Source: Escherichia coli
GTDB taxonomy: Bacteria > Pseudomonadota > Gammaproteobacteria > Enterobacterales > Enterobacteriaceae
Direction: 5' to 3' (one strand)
DNA length: 19,733 bases
NCBI RefSeq assembly: GCF_003334765.1
Contig: NZ_QOWT01000050.1
Shown: positions 15,229-15,446 of the stretch, piece after piece
Numbering within the stretch: the stretch's first letter is position 1
Layout of the letters: each line of letters begins with the position of its first letter
Notes under the pieces: generated by a model
Seen by the model: the letters and a program-made list of their open reading frames with translations, nothing else
Told to the model about the DNA's origin: nothing
The model's database searches: none
Made by a program: the position numbers and the translations under genes

Positions 15229-15446
15229 TATATTGTGGATGAACTGAAAAGTGCCCGGGAGCAACAAAAAAGGCGTGATGAACGTGCTGATGGTTCCGTT
15301 CCGCTGAAACTGTCCGGAAAAATCCACAAACAGCCTGAAAGTATTGCCCGAAGTCGTGGTGCCCCCCAAAAAAACTGTTGAATGAAATGATTGAGCTGGC
15401 GTACCAGGATTTTGTGGCAAATGAGCAGCACAAGACTCGGAGTTAA
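15229..15446 (+). pseudogene. Frameshifted small ORF (possible RHH-type regulator remnant) interrupted at an A7 homopolymer
   Basis: One frame reads ...YIVDELKSAREQQKRRDERADGSVPLKLSGKIHKQPESIARSRGAPQK and stops at 15379-15381; the -1 frame continues KKLLNEMIELAYQDFVANEQHKTRS* to 15446. The junction is the A7 run at 15368-15374. No ATG start upstream. Confidence 0.3.

Follow-up and report, generated by a model that had tools for sequence, protein, structure and literature searches.

Phase variation at contingency loci, as in Neisseria, Haemophilus and Campylobacter, takes place at poly-G/C or poly-A tracts. Programmed −1 frameshift sites are heptamers of the form X_XXY_YYZ, exemplified by the A_AAA_AAG of dnaX and by those of IS elements, and the runs for which the literature describes efficient transcriptional slippage are longer than A7. 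The locus considered here lies in a stretch of 19,733 nt of Escherichia coli DNA (the window; contig NZ_QOWT01000050.1). It had been put forward in the original prediction as a small gene of ribbon-helix-helix (RHH)-like character, split into two consecutive reading frames that would be joined by one base added in an A7 run, and representing a pseudogene, a sequencing error or a slippage-prone switch. Our analysis supports the first of these options, with a probability of about 0.9: the feature is a pseudogene, the non-functional remnant of a CP4-type integrative-island backbone gene of Enterobacterales, and on this the existing PGAP annotation, a deletion, a frameshift and a leucine-to-proline change (L355P) agree. 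The core conclusion is already present in RefSeq, where the PGAP entry for the identical locus of strain D8 gives 15235–15446 as a pseudogene, "frameshifted; incomplete; missing N-terminus" (the window is 1001–20733 of this locus, L001; window coordinates are those of L001 minus 1001). The features of the locus are collected in Table 1, in which L002 is a full-length copy of the parent gene.

Table 1. Features of the remnant and the sequence upstream of it, in window coordinates.
Feature	Position	Strand	Source or remark
IstB/IS100-type 'AAA family ATPase' fragment (IS100/IS21 helper)	13919-14053	+	PGAP annotation of the identical D8 locus
Conserved region, ∼1.16 kb, no annotated gene	14054-15212	+	upstream of the parent gene; intact in the window
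Vestigial upstream ATG and 4 codons (ATG CGA GAA GAG CAG)	15213-15227	+	start in some PGAP models
GTG start of the remnant	15235-15237	+	homologue of L002 GTG 2062-2064 (V10 of the long model)
First frame, GTG start, 48 aa	15235-15381	+	ORF list; protein VDELKSAREQQKRRDERADGSVPLKLSGKIHKQPESIARSRGAPQKNC, then stop
Deletion junction	15237/15238	+	936 bp (312 codons, G11 to L322 of the L002 protein) missing
Parent codons D323 to G363, original frame kept	15238-15361	+	long helix, putative beta-strand, RHH-like helix A
CCT (Pro) replacing CTT (Leu355)	15334-15336	+	alignments
C6 run	15362-15367	+	directly 5' of the A7 run; frameshift lesion at its 5' edge
A7 run	15368-15374	+	wild-type length for the A7-CTG allele class; not the lesion
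Out-of-frame continuation, parent L368 to S391 and original TAA stop	15375-15446	+	includes RHH-like helix B
Second frame, 22 aa	15378-15446	+	ORF list; protein LNEMIELAYQDFVANEQHKTRS, then stop
Premature TGA closing the first frame	15379-15381	+	ORF/translation analysis

The feature is not a small gene but the last 70 codons of a parent gene that encodes an uncharacterised Enterobacterales island protein of 381–391 aa (∼385 codons) and is carried by ∼2,090 of 5,426 complete E. coli genomes. In blastn searches, the lower-identity matches elsewhere started only at window 15238, were one base longer than the window and formed the 3' ends of intact 383–391-codon genes (WP_032155386.1, WP_000263646.1 and WP_000514098.1), with a DNA identity to the parent family of 89–94% from 15238 onward. 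The C-terminal residues of the intact genes read ...LLDELKSAREQQKRRDERADGSVPLKLSGKIHKQLESIARSRGV(P/L)PKK(M/L)LNEMIEQA(H/Y)..., and the homology of the remnant covers the pattern HK.LLDELK...KL....KKLE.IA......LN.LI of the C-terminal module. The N-terminal WLKK..RA..FFLF hairpin and the central PFSW...C.WLW...ATFDNW.GW domain, which correspond to L002 2065–3000, are missing from the window. Intact homologues of 383–391 codons thus exist, and the two frames, which lie in adjacent reading frames, are parts of one gene.

The flanks of the lesion align to either side of a gap of ∼940–950 bp in the full gene, window 13832–15226 matching L002 646–2048 (91.5%) and window 15238–15800 matching L002 3001–3530 by blastn. 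Gapped global alignment refined this pairing, such that window 15226–15237 corresponds to L002 2053–2064 and window 15238 to L002 3001, where codon D323 begins. The resulting 936-bp deletion keeps the frame of the GTG and fuses this codon to the parent's last 69 codons (...SRGAPQKKLLNEM... in peptide letters across the junction). Whether intact homologues have an upstream start codon was a check suggested with the original prediction; comparison of the alleles points to the homologue of GTG 15235, the codon fused by the deletion in the window, as probably the parent's true start. The annotated start in the intact locus L005 is at the GTG position, the upstream ATG there being followed at once by TGA, and the homologues P0004–P0007 likewise start at this position (MGKELDD/MEKELDD). 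In the window itself, the frame of the upstream ATG at 15213 reaches a stop after nine codons (MREEQLYCG), and 5 nt are missing near 15227/15228, whereby an SD-like GAGGTG upstream of the GTG is lost.

The truncated alleles all share GAGCAGCTATATTGTGG at the start/junction region, and the junction sequence GAGCAGCTATATTGTGGATGAACTG was common to every truncated allele inspected (L004, L006, L007, L008, L013 and L014). The same junction was found in 329 of the 5,426 complete genomes, which points to one ancestral event with later spread among island contexts. In strain EC21Z-147 the GTG is replaced by ATG (L007 1586, equivalent to window 15235) and the C6A7 frameshift is the same.

Although the two frames and the A7 run are both real, the missing base does not lie within the run, where the original prediction had placed it. 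At the hotspot, the window and the truncated loci L006 and L007 read GGTG-CCCCCC-AAAAAAA-CTG, with the frame shifted; the intact loci L003 and L005 read GGTG-TCCTCCC-AAAAAAA-CTG, in frame, and the intact locus L002, together with the truncated loci L004 and L014, reads GGTG-TCCCCCC-AAAAAAAA-TG, also in frame. The in-frame form GTCCTCCC-A7-CTG was present in 1,732 genomes (exact 66-mer of the L003 type) and the in-frame form GTCCCCCC-A8-TG in 312 genomes (exact 67-mer of the L002 type), which makes A7-CTG the most frequent normal state. In alignments one base is missing from the window at 15361/15362, with L002 base 3125 unpaired; the lost base would be the T of codon GTC, or else this T changed to C and the resulting C7 was then shortened to C6, the two readings being equivalent. 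Restoring the T gives a protein with 66/70 identity to the tail of the L003 parent, and adding an A instead gives 64/70. The claim that the frames join by one added base therefore stands, as the match of the joined 70-aa product to the C-termini of homologues shows the join to be backed by homology and not due to chance; it was the site that had been misplaced. The window has about as many A7 runs as chance would give (6 observed against 5.8 expected), and the composite C6A7 occurs in it once.

In the broken frame the A7 run gives, by chance, an A_AAA_AAC heptamer at 15369–15375, on which a programmed −1 frameshift might join the frames in expression, as might transcriptional slippage on the A7 run, to produce a 70-aa RHH-like protein. 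The heptamer is in the correct phase (frame-0 codons AAA AAC), a −1 shift would give ...GAPQKK-LLNEMIELAY..., and a stop codon lies 3 nt downstream. However, the fold of 15376–15450 revealed no downstream structure beyond chance (z = −0.24), and the intact homologues read the same A7 in a single frame, such that the two-frame layout is an accident of the upstream indel. L355P and the want of a good SD would, moreover, affect any product, and we consider recoding to be very improbable.

The proline that replaces Leu355 falls in a column that is invariant in a 12-member alignment of the family, and conserved to at least 90% in an alignment of 29 members with a reach of 17–30% identity. At the orthologous locus L013, the C10 allele has L355P as well. 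Being common to the window-type and poly-C alleles, the change is likely to be older than the changes in the tract. Helix B of the remnant carries, in addition, a Gln-to-Leu change (IEQAY to IELAY).

Homopolymers are prone to sequencing errors, and many frameshifted forms of the region appear in the protein database, from noisy assemblies; short protein 'homologues' from such assemblies were left out of our comparisons, because they are ORF calls on error-laden or fragmentary contigs. That the window contains an error of sequencing or assembly, and the real genome an intact 70-codon ORF, can nonetheless be dismissed. In the survey of 5,426 complete genomes, in which the tract was read in sampled rows of matches, the exact 66-nt C6A7 sequence of the window was found in 259 independent genomes from many laboratories and platforms, among them CFT073, Nissle 1917 and ATCC 25922, with at least 18 of these being 100% identical over a 701-nt region.

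The survey bears equally on the idea that the C6/A7 tract is a phase-variable (contingency) switch, controlling a small RHH-like protein through replication slippage. The original prediction had raised polymorphism in the length of the A run as something to look for among orthologues. Polymorphism of the tract does exist, and mainly concerns the adjacent C run (C6 to C11) and the A8 run of a sister allele. Sister truncated loci were found that differ in tract length alone: the GGAG-Cn-A7 group (15 genomes, with strains such as MS14384 and AH50; L010, L011 and L013), in which GGAG replaces the GGTG-C6 context of window 15358–15377, has C9 in five genomes, C10, which is in frame, in eight and C11 in two, and is otherwise identical over 131 nt. 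Moreover, A8 has become A7 in ∼13 genomes (verified in GCEC19, L008, the 12 others being inferred from identical match statistics), and C6A6 and C7A6 occur as singletons in strains M6 and AHB19 respectively. Such variation is what a slipping tract would produce, although the C9–C11 differences may reflect genuine poly-C instability or, in part, long-read homopolymer error. Against this, the window-type tract is short and identical in 259 of ∼270 genomes, so that variation among close strains is confined to the sister alleles. Furthermore, the ORF is a deletion remnant that has lost its SD, and L355P is found in it even where C10 keeps it in frame; all tract-variable copies are deletion remnants, and so an intact functional gene corresponding to an ON state is not found among them. 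No change in tract length was seen in full-length copies, for which spread samples were drawn from ∼1,990 genomes: every full-length copy sampled was in frame, and the tract variants, which represent several independent indels, were all on copies with the 936-bp deletion. This contrast fits a moderately mutable C/A tract that gathers indels under relaxed selection, and the pattern as a whole fits neutral decay rather than a selected switch, which seems a very poor explanation of the locus; for the window allele it is unsupported. A large number of strains carry it as a fixed, inherited allele, and it is not switching. The tract is a natural example of relaxed selection exposing homopolymer instability.

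The longest ORFs over the region are on the minus strand (14995–15486, 163 aa, and 15065–15433, 122 aa), which could be taken to mean that the real gene lies there and that the plus-strand frames are incidental. However, neither ORF matches any NCBIfam family, both cross the deletion junction and so cannot predate the deletion, and PGAP calls neither in any genome inspected, whereas the plus strand has clear homology at the protein level; a gene on the minus strand is accordingly not a credible reading. A plus-strand ORF further upstream (14578–14838, 86 aa) was also considered and rejected, as it belongs to no family; the one match from the search of these ORFs, to ISKra4 (E = 0.05), was disregarded.

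As for the protein of which the remnant is the end, Pfam, NCBIfam, PHROGs and PADLOC gave no above-threshold match to either the parent or its C-terminal 70–75 aa. Profiles of the C-terminus and of the full family, when searched against PDB sequences, returned nothing meaningful, and a literature search on the three RefSeq accessions found no papers. An exhaustive HMMER search of 1.84 billion representatives matched just 61 clusters, many of them fragments, and a word-indexed search 25 clusters. The proteins returned by Foldseek against AFDB50 were all uncharacterised and all from Enterobacterales (Escherichia, Salmonella, Enterobacter, Pluralibacter, Hafnia, Pectobacterium and Budvicia). In the AlphaFold model of the parent (29 sequences; mean pLDDT 77.9), an N-terminal helical hairpin is predicted to be followed by a disordered linker of ∼70 residues and a Trp-rich helical domain. 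The tail begins with a long helix, from which a coil of 9 residues leads to two further helices.

The RHH-like character attributed to the locus is plausible, but all matches are sub-threshold. The pattern of the tail is that of a hydrophobic strand (VPLKL), a helix (KIHKQLESIARS), a Gly turn and a second helix (KKLLNEMIEQAY), and AlphaFold predicts coil, helix and helix for this segment, compared to the beta-alpha-alpha of RHH proteins. The best NCBIfam match was to PRK11675, a LexA-regulated protein (E = 0.018, with 15 bits where the cutoff is 62). PHROG matches to HicB-like (0.036) and Arc-like (0.053) families and Pfam matches to CopG_antitoxin (0.06) and RHH_10 (0.039) were likewise below threshold, and a match to RepB-RCR_reg (2.6e-4) was obtained with one distant family member only. 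With hhalign, the alignment to CopG had an E value of 0.0065 but a probability of 5.8%, there was no match to Arc, and the PDB sequence searches came back empty. The tail is thus like ribbon-helix-helix proteins of the CopG/Arc/MetJ type in its conserved pattern, and its weak matches all fall on RHH families; it differs from them in matching none at family threshold, and in being placed at the end of a large protein and not standing alone. These similarities are no more than suggestive of an RHH-like DNA-binding tail, which is our best guess, and the tail of the parent would presumably act as a dimerising DNA-binding module.

The window belongs to an E. coli chromosomal island, and the region is 100% identical in many complete chromosomes. 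In strain D8 it forms part of a CP4-type island adjoining the kps capsule cluster, with genes for AlpA-like HTH, YagK/YfjJ, Hha-family, GTPase, Ag43, DUF932, antirestriction, RadC and CbtA/CbeA proteins. Parent loci in E. coli keep a conserved context, in which an AlpA-like HTH gene is adjacent and the GTPase/DUF932/antirestriction/RadC module lies downstream. Distant homologues (30% and ∼22% identity) are found with a divergent AlpA-like gene and then GTPase, DUF932, antirestriction and RadC genes, or with an integrase and YagK/YfjJ. The IstB fragment is upstream of the gene in truncated and full-length loci alike. At the same spot some genomes (L004) have a complete IS100, which marks it as an old IS insertion site.

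The conserved ∼1.16-kb region, which in every case precedes the parent gene, was detected in ∼2,084 genomes at 85–100% identity, mostly without an annotated feature; it has many indels between paralogous copies and short ORFs only, and could be either a long leader/regulatory region or older gene debris. Rfam gave no match on the whole window, and in a promoter/terminator scan of 14000–15900 the counts were at or below the expectation from shuffling. At 15162–15182, 30–50 nt upstream of the gene start, there is an inverted repeat (ATCTGTACATCATGTACGGAT) followed by a T-rich run, and inside it at 15166–15178 the palindrome GTACAT-C-ATGTAC (GTACATCATGTAC). The scan classed this repeat as terminator-like, a candidate operator being equally possible, and it is partly conserved in L002.

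The island holds several decayed genes. A second PGAP pseudogene, a frameshifted and N-terminally incomplete hypothetical gene, lies at 6774–7044 (L001 7775–8045), between the AlpA-like HTH and YagK/YfjJ-domain genes. Immediately downstream of the remnant, 15901–19462 encodes an MFS transporter, an alpha/beta hydrolase and a LysR regulator, and other islands have GTPase or dynamin-family genes, or an ABC transporter, at this position; these differences indicate that the remnant marks a variable cargo junction.

Taken together, the comparisons suggest the following course of decay, the order of the steps being inferred from the distribution of the changes among alleles. An ancestral 936-bp deletion would first have taken codons 2–313, counted from the GTG, together with the SD-like GAGGTG, and joined the start codon in frame to the last 69 codons. 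The invariant Leu of putative helix A would then have been replaced by Pro. Finally, one base would have been lost at the T/C run just 5' of A7, putting helix B out of frame and bringing in the TGA at 15379. Two findings sit less comfortably with a pseudogene. Firstly, the deletion is exactly in frame and begins right after the start codon, and secondly, an uninterrupted ORF of 70–72 codons is present in ∼34 genomes (verified in FXCREC004 and strain 536) and also in the eight C10 genomes. A 70-codon mini-gene that was functional at one time is possible on these grounds. We think it highly unlikely, however, that the in-frame deletion created a stand-alone 70-aa RHH-like mini-gene that has been kept for its function, with the tract as an on/off switch and the window in the OFF state. 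Were this to be so, the product might, for example, regulate paralogous island genes autonomously or in a dominant-negative manner, and the mutable tract (C9/C10/C11, A7/A8, C6/C7) would be located in the turn between the two helices. The preferred reading is that the locus is a gene remnant, and not a small ORF or a phase-variable switch; its significance is one of annotation hygiene. If anything here deserves study it might be the parent rather than the remnant, as a widespread and wholly uncharacterised backbone gene of CP4-type islands.

How the locus compares with the systems described at the outset can be stated briefly. It is like programmed −1 sites in having A_AAA_AAC in phase with a stop codon close behind, but differs from them in that there is no stimulatory structure, the two-frame layout is not conserved and the one-base loss upstream is recent. 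With contingency loci it shares a coding homopolymer of strain-dependent length (C6, C7, C9, C10 and C11; A6, A7 and A8) that toggles the frame, whereas the window tract is short and stable, belongs to a deletion remnant with a damaging missense change and has intact counterparts that are invariant. The closest relationship is to the parent family (the three RefSeq proteins above and UniProt A0A0H3MEY1 of E. coli IAI39). The remnant is ∼94% identical to it in DNA over the last 70 codons and occupies the same island position, downstream of the AlpA-like HTH gene, a gene for a 205-aa hypothetical protein and the IstB fragment. In contrast to the family, the window copy has lost 312 of ∼381 codons, is shifted in frame and carries Pro where Leu is otherwise invariant, and it is a remnant rather than a family member able to function.
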